From a virus, in the IMG/VR virus record IMGVR_UViG_3300009417_000002, positions 1 through 36,839 of that record: DNA of 36,839 bases. One strand, given 5' to 3'. A model generated the notes under the pieces. It made no database searches and was not told the DNA's origin. It worked only from the letters and a program-made list of their open reading frames with translations. The position numbers and the translations under genes were made by a program. Below, in pieces: positions 2,147-36,839 of this stretch (positions are counted from its first letter, which is position 1; each line of letters begins with the position of its first letter).

Positions 2147-3536
2147 AATTTCCTATAAAATGGTTTTTATTGTCATATACCGCACAAACATAATATTTCA
2201 ATGAATCCATTGGGTGCGTCCAAGTATCATTGGAAGGTTTATCTAGCTTCTGCCGTTGCCCATTTTTCCATACCGTATTTGTTACCGATCTAATTACATT
2301 TGGGCAATTATCACAAATAAATAATTCGTCTTGAAAAAATAGCTTCTGGACTAAATCAACTGAGACCCTTTCAAGCGGATTTGATTTAATTGCCCGTAAA
2401 CTAATTTTATTGTACCCCGCTTCTTTTAATATACCTATAATATTATCGTAATCAGAAGCCCCATTTCCTTTATGACTTCTGGCACGCCCAGAAGAATCGC
2501 CATATATATATATTGGGGTGTCTTGGAAGTCTTTCAGCGGGAACTTAACTATAAATTCAACAACGGCGTCTTCTAAAGTTTCGCCATTGCTATTTGCTTC
2601 GTCAATTACATAATTAAATCTTTTTCTTTTTCCCGTATGCTCGTCGCTTTCATAATAAGTTTGAACCACTACCCATTGCGGGCAAATGTTAAAATCCCAA
2701 CTTAAATGAATATCAAAATATGGTTCAGCGGGCATTGGTTTCTTGATATGAATTCCATATTTGAAATTAGAATAAGCCATACCAGAAGTGAACGGTCTAA
2801 AAAAACCATATACATAAGAATCAACTTTATTTGCATTGTGCTGATAAGCCTTTAATAAACTTGGTATATAGGTCTGGGCTAAATTCTGTTTATTTGAAAA
2901 GGTTGTAGCTCTGAACCTTCTCTTTTTAATCTCTATCTGTTCGCCTTCCAGTTCTATCATATCAGTTTTAGTATGATCTTTATCTTCGGATTTATCCCAA
3001 CCAGATTGTGCATCTGAATCAGCTTCTTCACTGAACCAGTTTAAACCTTCTGGCGTTGAACTCATTAACATCTGGGGCTTTGTATTTGAACCAACAAATC
3101 TGCAACGGGCAACCGCATTATCATAAACTTGTCTAACCATTAACGCTGATTCGTCTAGCCACGCAAAAGCTACTCTGTTAAAACCAACAATCTTTTCTGG
3201 CTTTTCCCCAGTTAGGAAGTGAATTACATTACCATTGCCCAGATCTATTTTTAATTCTGATTTATTAATTGTATAATGTTTTCCTTCAATCCTTCCAAAT
3301 ATATTTAAAACATCTCTATATGTGGGAATCAGTACATCTTGGATCAAAGAATATTTAGGCATTATATTCAGAATTTCAGTATTAGGGTTTTTCTTAGCTC
3401 GGTCTAAACTCCATAATACACCAGAAAAGGTTTTCCCTATTCCATAACCACCAGTTACAAATAAATAATCAGATAAATAGTCTTCTATACACTCTGACGC
3501 CCACCATTGTAAATCTATGGTCTTTTTAACTGGCAT
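2136..3536 (-). CDS. terL: Terminase large subunit
   Basis: 466 aa with a Walker A-like VTGGYGIGKT and a Walker B-like AFAWLDES in the N-terminal half, plus a nuclease-sized C-terminal half. It sits immediately upstream of the portal gene. Confidence 0.85.
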   Translation of the reverse strand: MPVKKTIDLQWWASECIEDYLSDYLFVTGGYGIGKTFSGVLWSLDRAKKNPNTEILNIMPKYSLIQDVLIPTYRDVLNIFGRIEGKHYTINKSELKIDLGNGNVIHFLTGEKPEKIVGFNRVAFAWLDESALMVRQVYDNAVARCRFVGSNTKPQMLMSSTPEGLNWFSEEADSDAQSGWDKSEDKDHTKTDMIELEGEQIEIKKRRFRATTFSNKQNLAQTYIPSLLKAYQHNANKVDSYVYGFFRPFTSGMAYSNFKYGIHIKKPMPAEPYFDIHLSWDFNICPQWVVVQTYYESDEHTGKRKRFNYVIDEANSNGETLEDAVVEFIVKFPLKDFQDTPIYIYGDSSGRARSHKGNGASDYDNIIGILKEAGYNKISLRAIKSNPLERVSVDLVQKLFFQDELFICDNCPNVIRSVTNTVWKNGQRQKLDKPSNDTWTHPMDSLKYYVCAVYDNKNHFIGNYGR

Positions 3537-3685
3537 TAAATAAATACATTAATTTCTAATATAAATTCTATTACTTCCCACGCTAACCTACCTAAGAAAA
3601 CAAGCCAAACTGATTGAATTGCAATAGTAATTGAAGATATTAATGTAATTGCTAATATTTCCAAACACGCTTTTCTATTTATCAT
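3536..3685 (-). CDS. 49-aa hydrophobic (membrane-type) peptide, below the ORF-track cutoff
   Basis: Hand translation gives MINRKACLEILAITLISSITIAIQSVWLVFLGRLAWEVIEFILEINVFI. AGAAGG lies 8 nt upstream of the ATG. The start overlaps the upstream gene by 11 nt. The stop overlaps the TerL ATG (TAATG), which suggests translational coupling. Confidence 0.45.
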   Translation of the reverse strand: MINRKACLEILAITLISSITIAIQSVWLVFLGRLAWEVIEFILEINVFI

Positions 3686-4268
3686 TTTTAAAACCTTCTA
3701 ATAATTTATTTTCTTCAATCTCTTTTCTTGTTGGTATGATAGTTTTCCCGCCAACTTCTCGGTTACAAGGGCACATCTCATCTGTTAATAAGCCGTCTAA
3801 AACTCTTAATGTTTCGTGGGTGCTTCTGCCTACCCCCCAATCATTAAAGGTTCTATGTACAACTTTTCTGTCTGGGATTGAAATTATTAGCGTGGTTCTG
3901 GTCGGAACTATCTCATCAAATTGCGGATTGAAATCTATTGCCCCAAATGAATCGGAATATTCTAAAGTAGCATCTGGAATATAAGTATGTTGAGTTTTGT
4001 TTAATATACCTTCAAAATACTTTGATTCTCTGATCCAGTTGAACCAGTGTTTGTATTTAGATTTGGATATAAACATCAAGCCACCTTCTCGCATCTCTAC
4101 TTCTGGAAGTATTTTTAAATACTCTGCTACTTCCGTTGGGCAAACAAATGTTTCTGCCTTTGGTATAAATACTATTATTAAAAACTGCATATCTAAAGTT
4201 TCTAATTCGTTATCTACTCTATATGATTCTATTAAGTGATCTATTGCTAAATTTCTCTTTAATCCCAT
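3675..4268 (-). CDS. Hypothetical 197-aa protein between the TerS-like gene and TerL
   Basis: Long ORF tightly packed in the packaging operon (1-nt gap to the upstream gene). I recognised no motif. Confidence 0.6.
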   Translation of the reverse strand: MGLKRNLAIDHLIESYRVDNELETLDMQFLIIVFIPKAETFVCPTEVAEYLKILPEVEMREGGLMFISKSKYKHWFNWIRESKYFEGILNKTQHTYIPDATLEYSDSFGAIDFNPQFDEIVPTRTTLIISIPDRKVVHRTFNDWGVGRSTHETLRVLDGLLTDEMCPCNREVGGKTIIPTRKEIEENKLLEGFKNDK

Positions 4269-4269
4269 T

Positions 4270-4629
4270 TTATTTGTCTTCCGATTCTTTAGGTAATTTA
4301 TTTATTATTATATCTGGAAGTTCAGTTACTTCAATAGTATTTTTTTCACGCCAACCATATTGAGTTTTTAAAACAAAAAAGCACGCTGATAAATTACCAC
4401 CTAAAGCCTTGCCGTAAACTGTATCTGCCAACTTCTTTAGCATATCTGACTTCCCAAATTCTAATTCTTTTGGATAAAACTTATTTAATGTCGGAAGGCT
4501 GATTTGTAATACATTGGCAATCTGGTCGTTGGTCATACCGTATGACTTCATTGTTTTGATCAAATTCTTTTTTCTTCCAGTTACTCTATGAGTAGTTGAA
4601 ACGCCTTTATTAACTTTTGTATCGGTCAT
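4270..4629 (-). CDS. Small terminase-like HTH DNA-binding protein
   Basis: 119 aa with a helix-turn-helix (MTNDQIANVLQISLPTLNKF) and a C-terminal FFVLKTQYGWREK motif resembling those seen in small-terminase families. It sits near the head of the packaging genes. Confidence 0.5.
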   Translation of the reverse strand: MTDTKVNKGVSTTHRVTGRKKNLIKTMKSYGMTNDQIANVLQISLPTLNKFYPKELEFGKSDMLKKLADTVYGKALGGNLSACFFVLKTQYGWREKNTIEVTELPDIIINKLPKESEDK

Positions 4630-4662
4630 CTGTTTATAGCTTAAATTAAATTAACATTTGTA

Positions 4663-5100
4663 TCAATATTTATTATCAAAAATATAATCAACTGCATAAT
4701 CAATTATAAATTGCGGTCGGTCAAAAATTGCGTTGCAACACCAGATAAAATTGAAAGGTCTTTTTTCACAATCTGATTCTGGGTGTATGATCCAATCCCT
4801 TGCATCTCTGAATTTCAAATATAAAGTTCTTTCATACTTAGTTAGTTTAAATCCAAACTTTACTTTGTCTGCTGTATCTCTGATCGTTGTGCTTGAAGCT
4901 GTTGGTCTGTCTTGGTTTATTGAATTTTTAATTAATCCTACATCAAAAAAACCATAATAGACTGTTGCCATTATTAAATTTTCTTCTGGGCTTCCTTCTT
5001 CTTGGGCTAAATTGAAGCAATCGCTGGGTATAGAAAAATATTCCTTTGAATTGGAATTAACATTAAACAAACTTCTAGCGGTTCTTTTTTTTTGCCCCAA
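4663..5100 (-). CDS. Hypothetical protein, first gene of the late operon (start uncertain)
   Basis: The ORF-track start is TTG at 5098-5100, followed by an A9 run on the mRNA (T9 at 5085..5093 on the plus strand). The first ATG is at 4969-4971. Function unknown. Confidence 0.5.
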   Translation of the reverse strand: MGQKKRTARSLFNVNSNSKEYFSIPSDCFNLAQEEGSPEENLIMATVYYGFFDVGLIKNSINQDRPTASSTTIRDTADKVKFGFKLTKYERTLYLKFRDARDWIIHPESDCEKRPFNFIWCCNAIFDRPQFIIDYAVDYIFDNKY

Positions 5101-5114
5101 ATTGGTATCTTTTC

Positions 5115-5127
5115 TGTAATTTTTACA
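5115..5127. promoter_or_regulatory. Palindrome TGTAA-N3-TTACA (operator candidate) just downstream of the putative late -10
   Basis: TGTAAtttTTACA, read directly from the sequence. It is one of at least six copies of this 13-bp palindrome in the window. Confidence 0.5.
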
Positions 5128-5128
5128 A

Positions 5129-5157
5129 ATATTACCCTATTTTTTCTATTCTGTAAA
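5129..5157 (-). promoter_or_regulatory. Sigma70-like promoter candidate for the late/packaging operon
   Basis: The minus strand reads TTTACA (5157..5152), then 17 nt, then TAATAT (5134..5129). This lies about 30 nt upstream of the first late ORF. Confidence 0.45.
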
Positions 5158-5164
5158 TATTACA
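5152..5164. promoter_or_regulatory. Palindrome TGTAA-N3-TTACA overlapping the putative late -35
   Basis: TGTAAataTTACA. Its centre is 37 bp from the centre of the 5115..5127 copy. Confidence 0.5.
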
Positions 5165-5230
5165 AATTCAGTTGTTGATAAACTGTTAATAACTAGATTT
5201 TTTCTTATATCAATACACTATAGCAAACGC

Positions 5231-5284
5231 CACCAGTGTCGGGGGGGGTTGCCACCAGTGTCTGGGGGGGCTGACACCAGTGTC
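5231..5284. repeat. Three phased direct repeats CACCAGTGTC (22-bp period) with G8 and G7 runs; iteron or terminase-recognition candidate
   Basis: Copies lie at 5231..5240, 5253..5262 and 5275..5284. The first two are followed by GGGGGGGG and by T plus GGGGGGG. This is the only strongly GC-rich patch in the 286-bp intergenic region. Confidence 0.85.
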
Positions 5285-5319
5285 ATAATATATATAAACT
5301 TATATATAAATATATAATA
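5285..5319. other. Near-pure A/T tract with TATATATAAA x2 (possible DNA unwinding element)
   Basis: 35 nt containing a single C. TATATATAAA occurs at 5289..5298 and 5301..5310. The tract directly abuts the phased repeats. Confidence 0.4.
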
Positions 5320-5338
5320 CACAATGATTTTTTTAATA

Positions 5339-5367
5339 TTTACATTTGTATTTTTATAATATAAGAT
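5339..5367 (+). promoter_or_regulatory. TTTACATTTGTAT box and candidate promoter for the 5387 gene
   Basis: TTTACA (5339..5344), then 17 nt, then TAAGAT (5362..5367). A perfect TATAAT also lies at 5355..5360. The box sequence is shared with five other intergenic sites. Confidence 0.35.
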
Positions 5368-5386
5368 CTTAAAAAAATAAAACTTA

Positions 5387-6211
5387 GTGGGGGTTATGGA
5401 ATCAAATTATTATATTTATGTTCAGCAATGGCAATATTCAAAAATTACTACAGCTGAAACTTGTTTACTTGGTATAATTCAAGCGTTTTCAAGTAAATCT
5501 GGGGTATGCTTTGCGGGAAATCTTACTTTATCGAACGCTATGCCCTTAAATCAATCTGGATCAAACTATTCTACCCGTTCAATTCAGCGTATGTTGAAAA
5601 TGTTATCTGAAAAAGATTTAATAAATATTGATTTTAATGATAACAAAAGGCAAATTTTTATTAAAGCAATAGCTAGCCCAATGGGATCAGTTGCCCCAGT
5701 AAAATCAGATGATTACTTTGATCAAAATTTTAAAGACTTACTTCCAGAACTTGAAATTGAAAATTCTAAAGAACTATCTGAAATTATAAATCTGTACTGT
5801 AAAAAATTAAAAAGGCTTAAAAAATTAGATCTGGAATCAATGAAGTTAAGTTTTGAAAAATATAAAGGTAATTCAGCTTGGTTGATTGAAGACATTGAAG
5901 TTGCATATTTTGGTGGATATTCTACTTTTTATTATTCTGATAGGTTCGCCAGAAGGGAAAAAGGGGAATCTGCTCTGGATCGTAATCAAGAAAATGAAAA
6001 CACTTGGCAAAATCTTCTCAAATTTGCTTCTAAAGGATATAATTATGATATTCTATCCAATCGCATAGAAGTTTCAAAATCACTTCCAGAACCTATAAAA
6101 TTGAAACTTCTAGAAGGTATTAAATCAATAGGTTGGAATAATATTAGAAAAGCTGATCCGTACCACCAGAAGCAATATAAAAAAACATTATTCACTTATC
6201 TAAACAAATAA
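5387..6211 (+). CDS. Putative replication initiator / replisome-organizer-like winged-helix protein
   Basis: 274 aa. The track start is GTG 5387; ATG 5396 is an alternative, with GGGGG just upstream. The N-terminal region (STRSIQRMLKMLSEKDLINI) looks like a wHTH initiator N-domain. The gene is adjacent to the phased repeats and the AT tract. The function is an inference. Confidence 0.4.
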   Translation: MGVMESNYYIYVQQWQYSKITTAETCLLGIIQAFSSKSGVCFAGNLTLSNAMPLNQSGSNYSTRSIQRMLKMLSEKDLINIDFNDNKRQIFIKAIASPMGSVAPVKSDDYFDQNFKDLLPELEIENSKELSEIINLYCKKLKRLKKLDLESMKLSFEKYKGNSAWLIEDIEVAYFGGYSTFYYSDRFARREKGESALDRNQENENTWQNLLKFASKGYNYDILSNRIEVSKSLPEPIKLKLLEGIKSIGWNNIRKADPYHQKQYKKTLFTYLNK

Positions 6212-6287
6212 CTTGGTTTGCGTTACACTTTAAGGCTTAACCGTAACACAAATTAAATCCACGCCCACTGATTGGTTTTATTTTGGT

Positions 6288-6302
6288 CTGTAATATTTAC
6301 AG
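6288..6302. promoter_or_regulatory. Palindrome CTGTAA-tat-TTACAG between convergent genes (operator copy or weak bidirectional hairpin)
   Basis: Perfect 6-bp arms with a 3-nt loop. The core is the same as the sites at 5115 and 5152. Confidence 0.35.
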
Positions 6303-6316
6303 TAATTTAAGTTAGA

Positions 6317-6338
6317 ATCTGCTGACTATCTGCTGACT
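6317..6338. repeat. Perfect tandem 11-mer ATCTGCTGACT x2 spanning the VRR-NUC stop codon
   Basis: Copies at 6317..6327 and 6328..6338, read directly. Confidence 0.85.
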
Positions 6339-6703
6339 TTTTTATTTGGAAGGGCTAAATACTTTTTTAAATGGTCTATTGCTTCCAGTGAACTATAACA
6401 AACTGAACACGCATAACCAACGCCAGACGCATATTTCATAAACTCAATTTGTTTTTCAGAAGGTTTGTTTGGTCTGATTTTCATTTCAATATATAAACCA
6501 GAATATCGCCCTTTAGGGCAAGGCAAGAATAAATCAGATATTCCCGCCTTGACGCCTTCGGCTTTTAACTCTCTGGCAATCTTTGGGTGTCTTTTGCCAC
6601 CGTTCGGTATAGCGTGCAACCAGATTAAAGCGGGGTGTCTGGGGGACATTAACCTTGCCCAATCGATTACAGCAACTTGTTCTCTATGCTCTCTGTTGAA
6701 CAT
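6326..6703 (-). CDS. VRR-NUC domain nuclease (PD-(D/E)xK superfamily)
   Basis: 125 aa carrying GISDLFLPCP...GLYIEMKIRPNKPSEKQIEFM, the D...E-x-K arrangement typical of VRR-NUC proteins. Confidence 0.8.
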   Translation of the reverse strand: MFNREHREQVAVIDWARLMSPRHPALIWLHAIPNGGKRHPKIARELKAEGVKAGISDLFLPCPKGRYSGLYIEMKIRPNKPSEKQIEFMKYASGVGYACSVCYSSLEAIDHLKKYLALPNKKVSR

Positions 6704-6709
6704 ATTAAG

Positions 6710-6946
6710 TTACTCTTGCTGTTCCAAGTCGGTAGCTACTTTGTTTAATTTTAATGAAATAGCCCTAATTACATTTGATAACTTCTCATTGAAGTCATAA
6801 TCTGAATTAAGATTATCTAGAAGTTTACACCTAAAAGCATTTCTGGATAAACCCATACGCCTAGCCAATTCAGATGAATTTAAGCCTACTTCACTAAAAA
6901 TTTTATGATATTCTTTTAATCTACCTTTTCTGTCTATTTCTTCCAT
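6710..6946 (-). CDS. Cro/CI-type (XRE-like) HTH transcriptional regulator
   Basis: 78 aa with the HTH LNSSELARRMGLSRNAFRCKL. It is transcribed divergently from the early operon and away from the inverted-repeat operator at 6981..7026. Confidence 0.7.
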   Translation of the reverse strand: MEEIDRKGRLKEYHKIFSEVGLNSSELARRMGLSRNAFRCKLLDNLNSDYDFNEKLSNVIRAISLKLNKVATDLEQQE

Positions 6947-6980
6947 TTTTTACTTTTGTTAATTATTTTGAAACTTATTA

Positions 6981-7026
6981 TTTACATTTGTATCATAAGT
7001 ATATATTGTAATGATACAATTGTAAA
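6981..7026. promoter_or_regulatory. Inverted repeat of the TTTACA(T/A)TTGTATC box; overlapping divergent promoter pair / operator
   Basis: 14-bp arms at 6981..6994 and 7013..7026 match at 13 of 14 positions, with an 18-nt spacer. The plus strand reads TTTACA-N17-TATTGT toward 7045. The minus strand reads TTTACA-N17-TATACT toward 6946. Confidence 0.6.
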
Positions 7027-7044
7027 TAAAAAGGACATAAAATT

Positions 7045-9372: not shown

Positions 9373-9648
9373 ATGACAGAAGAAGTAAGAACAATGACAA
9401 TTAAAGAAGTAAAAACTTTAAGGGTTGCAATTAGTAAAATAGAACAAGAATTAATTTGTTCAAGTAGAGAAACAAGTCTTAGTAAGACTAAATTACAAGA
9501 AGCTAAAATGTGGTTAGGTATGGAATTATCTAGATTAGGGGCATTAAACCCATATCCAGAATCATACAATCCAGAAAATGATAAGGTTGAACCAACTGCT
9601 GATGTTTATAATCCAGAACCAGTTGAAACTAATAATTCTGAATTTTAA
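9373..9648 (+). CDS. Hypothetical early protein
   Basis: 91-aa ORF with AAGGGA upstream. No function recognised. Confidence 0.55.
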   Translation: MTEEVRTMTIKEVKTLRVAISKIEQELICSSRETSLSKTKLQEAKMWLGMELSRLGALNPYPESYNPENDKVEPTADVYNPEPVETNNSEF

Positions 9649-14464: not shown

Positions 14465-14813
14465 CCATAACTTGAAATTTAAAAAGTAGCGGACGCCCTT
14501 CTGTACACTCAACAAAAAGAATCCCTTTATATATTTTACTTTCAAAATATTCAGCATCAATTTTAAAATTAACTGTATAGTTAATAATATCAAAATCAAT
14601 TTTAAAATCATCAGTTACTAATCTGTTTCTATAAGTATCGTTCATTGTGAACTTTACATTTCCAGTTAGTTTTCTATTGCTTCTTTTATTAGATCTTATA
14701 AAATCAACTTGCCCTTCCAAGCCCGCATCTACTCGCAAATCAATGATTAATTTTTTTAGGTTACACTCGCAACCACCAACCATTTGTTTGAATTTTTTAT
14801 ATGATTTATTCAC
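14448..14813 (-). CDS. Hypothetical protein, last late gene (start uncertain: GTG 14813 or ATG 14783)
   Basis: 121-aa ORF rich in beta-strand-like sequence. Confidence 0.5.
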   Translation of the reverse strand: MNKSYKKFKQMVGGCECNLKKLIIDLRVDAGLEGQVDFIRSNKRSNRKLTGNVKFTMNDTYRNRLVTDDFKIDFDIINYTVNFKIDAEYFESKIYKGILFVECTEGRPLLFKFQVMVRHLQ

Positions 14814-20897: not shown

Positions 20898-21676
20898 TAT
20901 TGTAAATCTTCCAAAATATCAAATGTTAAGTTGTAATAGTCTTCTGCTGTCTTAGTATATCGGAAGTTAGAAACCCGCCCATAAATTAATTCTTTTTCAT
21001 TTATAAAATGCGTTCTATTAGTATTCCAGACATAAGCCCATTGAGTTTGCCAATTTAGAAAAAAACGCCTTTTAAATTGCCTAATAGCTACATCATCAAG
21101 CCCGTTATAAGTGAATTTATATCTTAATAGCGGTAATCCCGTTCTAACTTTATATTTGTACCCAGAAGTTGCGTACCTACTGGCTTTTCTTTGATCTATA
21201 AATTCTTCTGTAAAATTAGTTAAGCTGTAAATAGGATCTAAGAAGTTACCAAAAAATATTTTTCCAAAATTAAAATCAGTATTAACAATTGAGTTAAAAC
21301 AAACACGCCAATATTGATGATTACCAGTGTCCGCAAAAGTTTCAAAATAAGTATCATTTCTATTTCCAGTAATTTGAAAAGGTGTATTTACCGTTGTTAC
21401 ATTTACCCAAGTGATATTATCATCTGAATATTCTAATGTTACCGAAGTTGCCCCAGACAATTTAAGTAAATCAGCCCTTCCAATTATAAAATATTCCGCT
21501 GACTTCCCAGTAATTCCACAATTATATGTAATACAATTAGTTGTTGAACTGGAATTAAATTTGGTTCTTAAATAGCCATTTCCAGTGATAGAATTACAAA
21601 CTGTTTCAGAATCAGCTTTAACAGTTGAATTAAACGGTATATCTGGAACTGCAAAAAGAAAACAAGAATCATACAT
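20897..21676 (-). CDS. Distal tail protein (Dit-like, positional)
   Basis: 259 aa, immediately downstream of the tape measure gene. Confidence 0.5.
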   Translation of the reverse strand: MYDSCFLFAVPDIPFNSTVKADSETVCNSITGNGYLRTKFNSSSTTNCITYNCGITGKSAEYFIIGRADLLKLSGATSVTLEYSDDNITWVNVTTVNTPFQITGNRNDTYFETFADTGNHQYWRVCFNSIVNTDFNFGKIFFGNFLDPIYSLTNFTEEFIDQRKASRYATSGYKYKVRTGLPLLRYKFTYNGLDDVAIRQFKRRFFLNWQTQWAYVWNTNRTHFINEKELIYGRVSNFRYTKTAEDYYNLTFDILEDLQ

Positions 21677-36586: not shown

Positions 36587-36839
36587 TTGCTACTGGTTCC
36601 CAATCGTGGGTGCAATTATAACCACCCCCATAAATAAATACTGGCGTTAAACCTTGCCCGTTATCCATTTGTTGAATTTCTTCATAAGTGAATATCTTAC
36701 CTTGCCTTTCAGCACAAAATGGTCTGGGCGGTGTTTTTGCTTTTCTAACTTTGATATATCTGAACCTTCTAGTTCCTTTCTTTAAAGATTTTTGTATTAC
36801 TGAACTTCTTCTGAAACTGGTTAATGCTGTGTGCAAACT
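36573..36839 (-). CDS. Head morphogenesis protein (MuF / SPP1 gp7-like), C-terminal part of the gene split by the window edge
   Basis: The C-terminal PPRPFCAERQGKIF...GGGYNCTHDWEPV resembles the conserved Cys/His-containing end of MuF/gp7 family proteins. The track-listed M is merely the window edge. Confidence 0.6.
   Translation of the reverse strand, partial: SLHTALTSFRRSSVIQKSLKKGTRRFRYIKVRKAKTPPRPFCAERQGKIFTYEEIQQMDNGQGLTPVFIYGGGYNCTHDWEPVANEEE
36717..36839. repeat. Terminal direct repeat, copy 2 (identical to 1..123)
   Basis: Direct comparison with 1..123. Confidence 0.97.

Follow-up and report, generated by a model that had tools for sequence, protein, structure and literature searches.

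A candidate theta-type replication origin with palindromic iterons and G-run spacers upstream of a winged-helix gene in an AT-rich phage genome

Introduction

The origin of phage lambda comprises four iterons and an AT tract in the middle of gene O, of which two iterons and the AT tract suffice for unwinding; the O protein makes contact with G-tracks in every iteron, and the origin is activated by transcription (PMC7466680). At SPP1 oriL, the G38P protein binds AB boxes beside an AT-rich unwinding element inside gene 38, and the helicase is brought in via a loader (PMC5737612). Iteron plasmids such as R6K, F, P1, pPS10 and RK2 (described in part in PMC7157519) use 17-22-bp iterons with ~22-bp spacing, an AT-rich region, a winged-helix Rep protein and autoregulation. 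Origins have been mapped in very few phages, and in almost none from AT-rich uncultured hosts.

Here, we analyze a 36,839-nt stretch of viral DNA (IMG/VR record IMGVR_UViG_3300009417_000002, hereafter the window) and describe a locus at 5229-5385 that, judged by sequence comparison and duplex stability, is most probably a phage origin of theta-type replication built like those of lambda and SPP1. The locus offers a precise candidate, with 58 bp of iterons, a 100-bp unwinding element and a named candidate initiator, a 271-aa winged-helix protein.

With the lambda origin, the locus shares tandem palindromic iterons, a phage initiator, a one-sided AT-rich unwinding tract and linkage to the initiator gene. 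It differs from lambda in having three iterons located upstream of the gene, in carrying G runs between the palindromes and not inside them, and in a candidate initiator of the HTH_36 / PHROG 270 type, distinct from the lambda O family. The likeness to SPP1 lies in organizer-bound repeats beside an AT-rich unwinding element; however, oriL lies inside gene 38, and SPP1 has helicase and loader genes of its own, neither of which is recognizable in the window phage. An origin embedded in the initiator gene characterizes lambda and SPP1, but the mechanism does not depend on it, and in the window the array is intergenic and upstream. The iteron plasmids resemble the locus in the features listed for them above, but their repeats are mostly direct and non-palindromic, their Rep proteins act as monomers, and copy number is controlled by handcuffing, a control that nothing suggests here. 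The kind of element is classical, and since the mechanism is that of lambda and SPP1, the finding extends known biology rather than changing it; the family-wide rule described below may be the new part.

Results

Genome organization around the divergent intergenic region

The window is a complete, circularly assembled phage genome of ~36.7 kb and 32% GC, with an exact 123-bp terminal direct repeat (1-123 and 36717-36839) and a minus-strand ORF spanning the junction. Because the assembly is circular with a 123-bp terminal overlap, it holds no information on termini. Leftward from position 5100 run a 145-aa ORF, a TerS-like 119-aa gene, an AhpC-like gene, TerL, portal and structural genes. Rightward from 5396 runs the gene for the 271-aa protein, followed by an early region with Gam-like and RecT genes and, on the opposite strand, a VRR-NUC gene. 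No helicase, primase or polymerase gene is recognizable in the phage, nor is any other replication gene in the early operon. The detrended cumulative GC skew has its minimum at 4467 and its maximum at 14495; the turn near the array is not independent evidence for an origin because it coincides with gene-strand switches.

Cultured relatives are distant. At the DNA level, none of the GenBank phages resembles the region 3500-7000. The identity of TerL to its counterparts in cultured phages does not exceed 27%, and IMG/VR yielded no relative of the 271-aa protein and a single distant relative of TerL. A second assembly (Logan contig, SRR5754712) is identical across the intergenic region, G-run lengths included, although it may not represent an independent sample and is uninformative on G-run variability.

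Three further features of this genome deserve mention. A 197-aa AhpC/TSA-like gene (peroxiredoxin/thioredoxin fold; 3675-4268, minus strand) sits between the TerS-like gene and TerL, an unusual cargo for a packaging operon. A 91-aa ORF at 9373-9648 weakly matches the Acb2/Tad1 hairpin domain, below threshold (E = 2.9e-4; 21 bits, where the cut-off is 27), and may encode an anti-defence nucleotide sponge. A second, short divergent intergenic region at 6947-7044, located between a 78-aa minus-strand ORF and a 150-aa plus-strand ORF that both lack family matches, could be a regulatory switch of the phage.

Three palindromic iterons and two G runs

The elements of the locus are the following.

5229-5240, no strand: iteron 1, GCCACCAGTGTC, an imperfect palindrome with left arm GCCAC and right arm GTGTC
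5241-5248, no strand: G8 homopolymer spacer, from the sequence read and run count
5251-5262, no strand: iteron 2, GCCACCAGTGTC, 22 bp past iteron 1
5264-5270, no strand: G7 homopolymer spacer, from the sequence read and run count
5272-5285, no strand: iteron 3, TGACACCAGTGTCA (TGACAC-CA-GTGTCA), with perfect 6-bp inverted arms around a central CA, 22 bp past iteron 2
5285-5385, no strand: putative AT-rich DNA unwinding element, the least stable duplex of the whole genome
5289-5298 and 5301-5310, no strand: two copies of TATATATAAA, 12 bp apart, within the putative unwinding element
5341-5348, plus strand: TACATTTG, a match to the -7 box TAnnTTTG, a candidate early promoter in the AT tract, 48 nt before the ATG
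5396-6211, plus strand: gene for the 271-aa initiator candidate, with an N-terminal winged helix-turn-helix and a C-terminal helical part

A preliminary description of this DNA had reported three copies of a 10-mer, two of them followed by G runs, as a GC-rich island between the divergent operons, and each of these points holds. Both the sequence read and a repeat finder place the shared 10-mer CACCAGTGTC at 5231, 5253 and 5275 with a spacing of exactly 22 bp, so tandem repeats at about two helical turns, as found in iteron-type phage origins, are present in three copies. The G8 and G7 runs that follow the first two copies are the two longest of the three G runs of six or more in the window. 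The array measures 70% GC, compared with 18% in the remainder of the intergenic region (5101-5395). There is no fourth exact copy of CACCAGTGTC in the window and only one site with a single mismatch, at 21322; shuffled sequences contain on average 0.63 sites with at most one mismatch to the 10-mer. The earlier description did not include the inverted-repeat form of the third copy. The core of iteron 3, GACACCAGTGTC at 5273-5284, is a 5+2+5 inverted repeat (GACAC-CA-GTGTC), and iterons 1 and 2 are one base off this palindrome.

An easily melted tract between the array and the early gene

The AT-rich, easily melted tract that accompanies the repeats of iteron-type origins is present on the gene-ward side of the array. 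Specifically, the segment 5285-5385 ranks first of all windows of the genome by nearest-neighbour free energy at 40, 60 and 100 bp, and GC content in gene direction is 10% after the array versus 23% before it. The 35-nt tract 5285-5319 had been described as abutting the array and containing only A and T; it does abut the array, but it contains a single C at 5299. The two TATATATAAA copies noted within it are indeed found, beginning at 5289 and 5301. The distance from the array to the early gene, given previously as 100-160 bp, is ~110-165 bp when measured to the ATG at 5396 (a GTG at 5387 is in frame).

The AT tract also contains a candidate early promoter. The box TACATTTG fits TAnnTTTG, the Bacteroidota-type -7 promoter consensus, and similar boxes precede other plus-strand genes, for example at 6951/6983, 7674 and 12537. 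Together with a Cellulophaga phage relative of the protein P0002 (see below), these boxes hint at a Bacteroidota host. A sigma-70 promoter scan gave weak matches only, from a model unsuited to a probable Bacteroidota-type host. The search for DnaA boxes returned one site with one mismatch, at 5173, which is not meaningful because the whole window contains 12 such sites. At the opposite end of the intergenic region, two 23-nt direct repeats TCTnTTCTGTAAnTnTTACAAAT at 5108-5130 and 5145-5167, 37 bp apart, each enclose a TGTAA...TTACA inverted repeat. The pair lies immediately upstream of the first ORF of the late operon (minus strand, start 5100) and may be a late promoter or operator.

A winged-helix initiator candidate

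A tightly linked gene for an initiator candidate with a DNA-binding domain, as in iteron-type origins, starts 111 bp past the array. The 271-aa protein has a winged helix at approximately residues 17-90 with the recognition helix STRSIQR. Its direct matches are weak, both to Pfam HTH_36 (18 bits, where the cut-off is 25) and to the 'replication initiation protein' family PHROG 270 (E = 3e-4). A word-index search returned the protein itself and nothing else, and an exhaustive HMMER search detected one relative, again as a weak match: P0002, an HTH_36 / PHROG 270 protein that is 40% identical over residues 5-104. We detected no relatives of the C-terminal two thirds of the protein, a PDB sequence search gave no match, and a single-sequence AlphaFold model had a mean pLDDT of 36 and was unusable.

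A profile built from the array-linked initiators of other genomes (described below), with the window sequence excluded, matched one of the 169 window ORFs, namely the 271-aa protein, with E = 1.3e-7, a value that, like all E-values from this profile, refers to a small search space. The same profile aligns STRSIQR to the family consensus SsRtVqR, and it does not match the TerS-like protein.

Arrays of the same kind are linked to initiator genes in other genomes

With no close relative of the phage in the collections, the comparison was made through the array as a DNA pattern. Three unrelated high-GC viral contigs contain the exact repeat pair, each time inside or just past a winged-helix ORF. 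The degenerate pattern GACACNNGTGTC-N10-GACACNNGTGTC adds seven further loci (eight counting L001 again), all in or beside winged-helix ORFs except L007, where the nearest such ORF lies 1.2 kb upstream. A metagenome scan yielded at least 119 loci and a genome scan with one genome per species yielded 94, giving 213 loci, of which 197 have a phased array. The scan pattern was a fixed 10-mer, and therefore only its association with initiators counts as an independent result.

That association is pronounced. By a winged-helix profile, and with ORF calling that is noisy in high-GC loci, a winged-helix ORF lies at most 500 bp from the array in 39 of the 197 loci, compared with only two loci in control DNA more than 1.5 kb away and 3.8 times larger. 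Among arrays with at least two perfect copies of GACACCAGTGTC, 29 of 43 fall within 500 bp of such an ORF. The other 158 loci showed no winged-helix ORF; most of these 10-mer pairs are protein-coding repeats of DTGD type, unrelated to the array, and were rejected. Fourteen palindromic arrays among these loci are not explained in this way. Overall, GACACnnGTGTC arrays with copies 21-24 bp apart are found inside or beside HTH_36 / PHROG 270 initiator genes in metagenomes and genomes of many phyla, across 28-70% GC.

The array-linked proteins match Pfam HTH_36 and PHROG 270 with E-values down to 1e-35, and relatives of the 271-aa protein have additional matches to 'DnaD-like helicase loader' PHROGs. 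The annotated downstream neighbours are replication genes: IstB/DnaC-like (4), DnaB (3), Toprim (1) and RuvC (1).

These linkages bear on the second function that the preliminary description had considered, a pac or cosB-like terminase recognition site at which the TerS-like 119-aa protein (4270-4629) would bind the phased repeats to start packaging. Lambda cosB also has three R sites, the window array heads the operon containing the TerS-like gene, TerL and portal, and the array-bearing gene of locus L001 has a terminase gene ~1 kb further downstream. However, the terminase linkage is not conserved: one terminase is present among 49 neighbour ORFs, which include several DnaB or DnaC-like genes, and across genomes the array is tied to the initiator gene, inside which it lies in 36 of 39 loci. 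In addition, the array-linked DNA-binding profile fails to match the TerS-like protein, whose gene starts ~600 bp from the array with the 145-aa ORF in between. Because the array travels with initiators and not with terminases, we consider a packaging site very unlikely. The description's first reading, iterons and a DNA unwinding element serving the adjacent winged-helix initiator, is strongly supported by the comparative data and by duplex stability.

Shared architecture of the initiator-linked arrays

In the 36 loci with the array inside the initiator gene, it lies 20-360 nt past the DNA-binding domain, the arrangement known from lambda O and SPP1 gene 38 (PMC7466680, PMC5737612); upstream arrays also occur (L154, L015 and L078). 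All three reading frames and both orientations of the 10-mer are used, with two or more frames within one gene in 30 of 36 loci, and so the motif is conserved as DNA and not as peptide. The 60 nt that follow the array in gene direction average 45% GC against 56% for the locus; this enrichment in AT holds for 31 of 38 loci (p = 2e-9), and the 60 nt before the array do not show it. Short direct repeats spaced by 9-16 bp are found after the array in 16 of 38 relatives and before it in three of 39.

The window array has the features of this class: the GACAC-nn-GTGTC core, the 22-bp spacing, an adjacent winged-helix homologue, G spacers and AT-richer DNA on the gene-ward side, so that its order of iterons and then AT-rich DNA in gene direction reproduces the polarity of the family. 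It is unusual in lying upstream of the initiator gene and not inside it, and in keeping its G runs free of coding constraint.

These features also weigh on a purely regulatory role, in which the array would be a set of operators between divergent early and late promoters, bound by the first early protein as a repressor or switch, with no origin function. The position of the window array suits such a role, as it occupies the only divergent intergenic region other than the short one at 6947-7044 and lies 55-110 bp upstream of the promoter-like -7 box at 5341, and three phased sites recall lambda OR. In the relatives, however, the arrays are within coding sequence, past the DNA-binding domain and far from promoters, and are followed by AT-rich DNA and by helicase or loader genes, and the protein family is annotated as a replication initiator. 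We regard operators devoid of origin function as improbable; autoregulation through the iterons is compatible with the origin model and is not a true alternative to it.

Homopolymer spacers of G or C are present in about a third of the members. G or C runs of at least five occupy 17 of 55 spacers, compared with ~1% of control 12-mers, and homopolymer spacers of the G8/G7 type are a recurrent DNA-level feature of this origin family. The preliminary description had asked whether repeat phasing and G-run length are conserved or variable among relatives. Start-to-start spacing is kept, with 185 locus counts at 21-24 bp versus 24 at 19, 20 or 25 bp. On the sense strand, G runs and C runs are about equally common, and some arrays contain just one run, of 6. 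Between related contigs run length is either kept or altered by substitution, so that spacing stays at 21-24 bp. In the window, coding does not explain the G runs, as the array is intergenic.

These data speak against the view that the G8 and G7 runs are themselves the functional core, as a G-quadruplex or a slippage-prone, phase-variable switch, with the flanking repeats incidental. The two runs, the longest in a 32% GC genome, could yield four G3 tracts, as had been suggested. Taking four tracts of at least three G with loops of 1-7 nt as the definition, they do not form a canonical quadruplex because the central loop would be 15 nt; no canonical motif exists anywhere in the window, folding with quadruplexes allowed does not choose one, and the runs of the relatives show no strand preference. 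Against slippage stand the spacing maintained in relatives and run lengths that are the same in the two assemblies. A G-run core is almost certainly not what this locus represents.

Proposed mechanism of origin opening

In the origin model, the N-terminal winged helix of the 271-aa protein, which probably acts as a dimer, would bind to the three palindromic iterons (GACAC-nn-GTGTC core). The 22-bp spacing, equal to two helical turns, would place the bound proteins on one face of the DNA and allow them to form a single nucleoprotein complex, and strain from this complex would open the AT tract next to it (5285-5385). The host helicase and replisome may then be recruited by the initiator through its C-terminal part. 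The G/C-run spacers could act as stiff, hard-to-melt segments or could provide extra contacts for the initiator.

The likely early promoter overlaps the AT tract, and array and tract together separate the divergent early and late operons; initiator binding would therefore probably also feed back on early transcription, and transcription may in turn help open the origin. With the array upstream and the TAnnTTTG box (5341-5348) 48 nt before the start codon, both autoregulation and transcriptional activation are plausible.

It is possible, if somewhat doubtful, that the GACAC-palindrome, G/C-run, ~22-bp array is the signature of one phylum-spanning class of PHROG 270 / HTH_36 origins. The recognition code, pairing the helix S-x-R-T-V-Q-R with the GACAC arms, would then be conserved across 28-70% GC. 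The homopolymer spacer would itself have a function as DNA, for instance by restricting melting to the AT tract as a stiff, hard-to-melt clamp, or by offering the initiator a second point of contact. The window is informative here, since G8 and G7 persist in its non-coding array although the genome has 32% GC. If this reading is true, it would provide a simple sequence rule for predicting phage origins in metagenomes. The pairing of this palindromic iteron, often with G or C runs as spacers, with one initiator family in many phyla could guide origin annotation in phage and prophage genomes by the thousand, and replicons could be built from it for hosts that are difficult to work with. Literature searches with the iteron sequence returned primer matches only, with no relevant context, and in our incomplete coverage of the literature on HTH_36 origins and RepA-like initiators we found no description of the iteron family or of G/C-run spacers, which may nonetheless have been described.

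Individual relatives

The P0002 gene, the closest link to the window protein, is located on an AT-rich contig (L014) and carries, right past the winged helix, two 22-bp units (TGACAnnnnTGTCA plus a C7 run) and then an AT tract. The GCCACCAGTGTC variant of the window iterons is also found in the initiator-linked arrays L052 and L128, and in L010 genes for a DnaC-like loader and a DnaB helicase lie directly downstream.

Among cultured phages, Cellulophaga phage phi39:1 offers a counterpart. Its gp41 is an HTH_36 initiator whose winged helix shares 48% identity with that of P0002. Within the gene CCCACGACAAAATTGTC occurs three times at 22-23 bp together with an AT tract, and a DnaB-like helicase gene follows. 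The likeness to the window extends to the three 12-bp palindromes GACAAAATTGTC with CCC(C) spacers. It differs from the window in having the array inside the gene, arms of GACAA in place of GACAC, and short C runs. We found no study of an origin in the gp41 region of phi39:1 in the literature searched.

In Arthrobacter phage Lilmac1015, gp46 ('RepA-like replication initiator'; L229, 2755-2830) has runs of C8, C8 and C10 ~32 bp apart after the winged helix, followed by an AT-rich stretch, and so long G/C runs mark candidate origins even where the palindrome differs.

Two loci depart from the common layout. One Bacteroidota MAG contains the same four-iteron array, TGACACCAGTGTCA at 19 bp with flanking AT-rich repeats, on two contigs (L210, 607-673, and L154, 130-196). 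The L154 array lies directly upstream of a PHROG 270 initiator gene, and L210 has no such gene within 7.6 kb; by analogy, the L210 array may recall oriR, the second origin of SPP1, or may be a second element. In Cobetia amphilecti (L155, 1128-1161), the arrangement GCGACACCAGTGTC-G11-TGACACCAGTGTC contains the longest run seen and lies at an unusual distance, 2.4 kb, from the nearest winged-helix initiator ORF.
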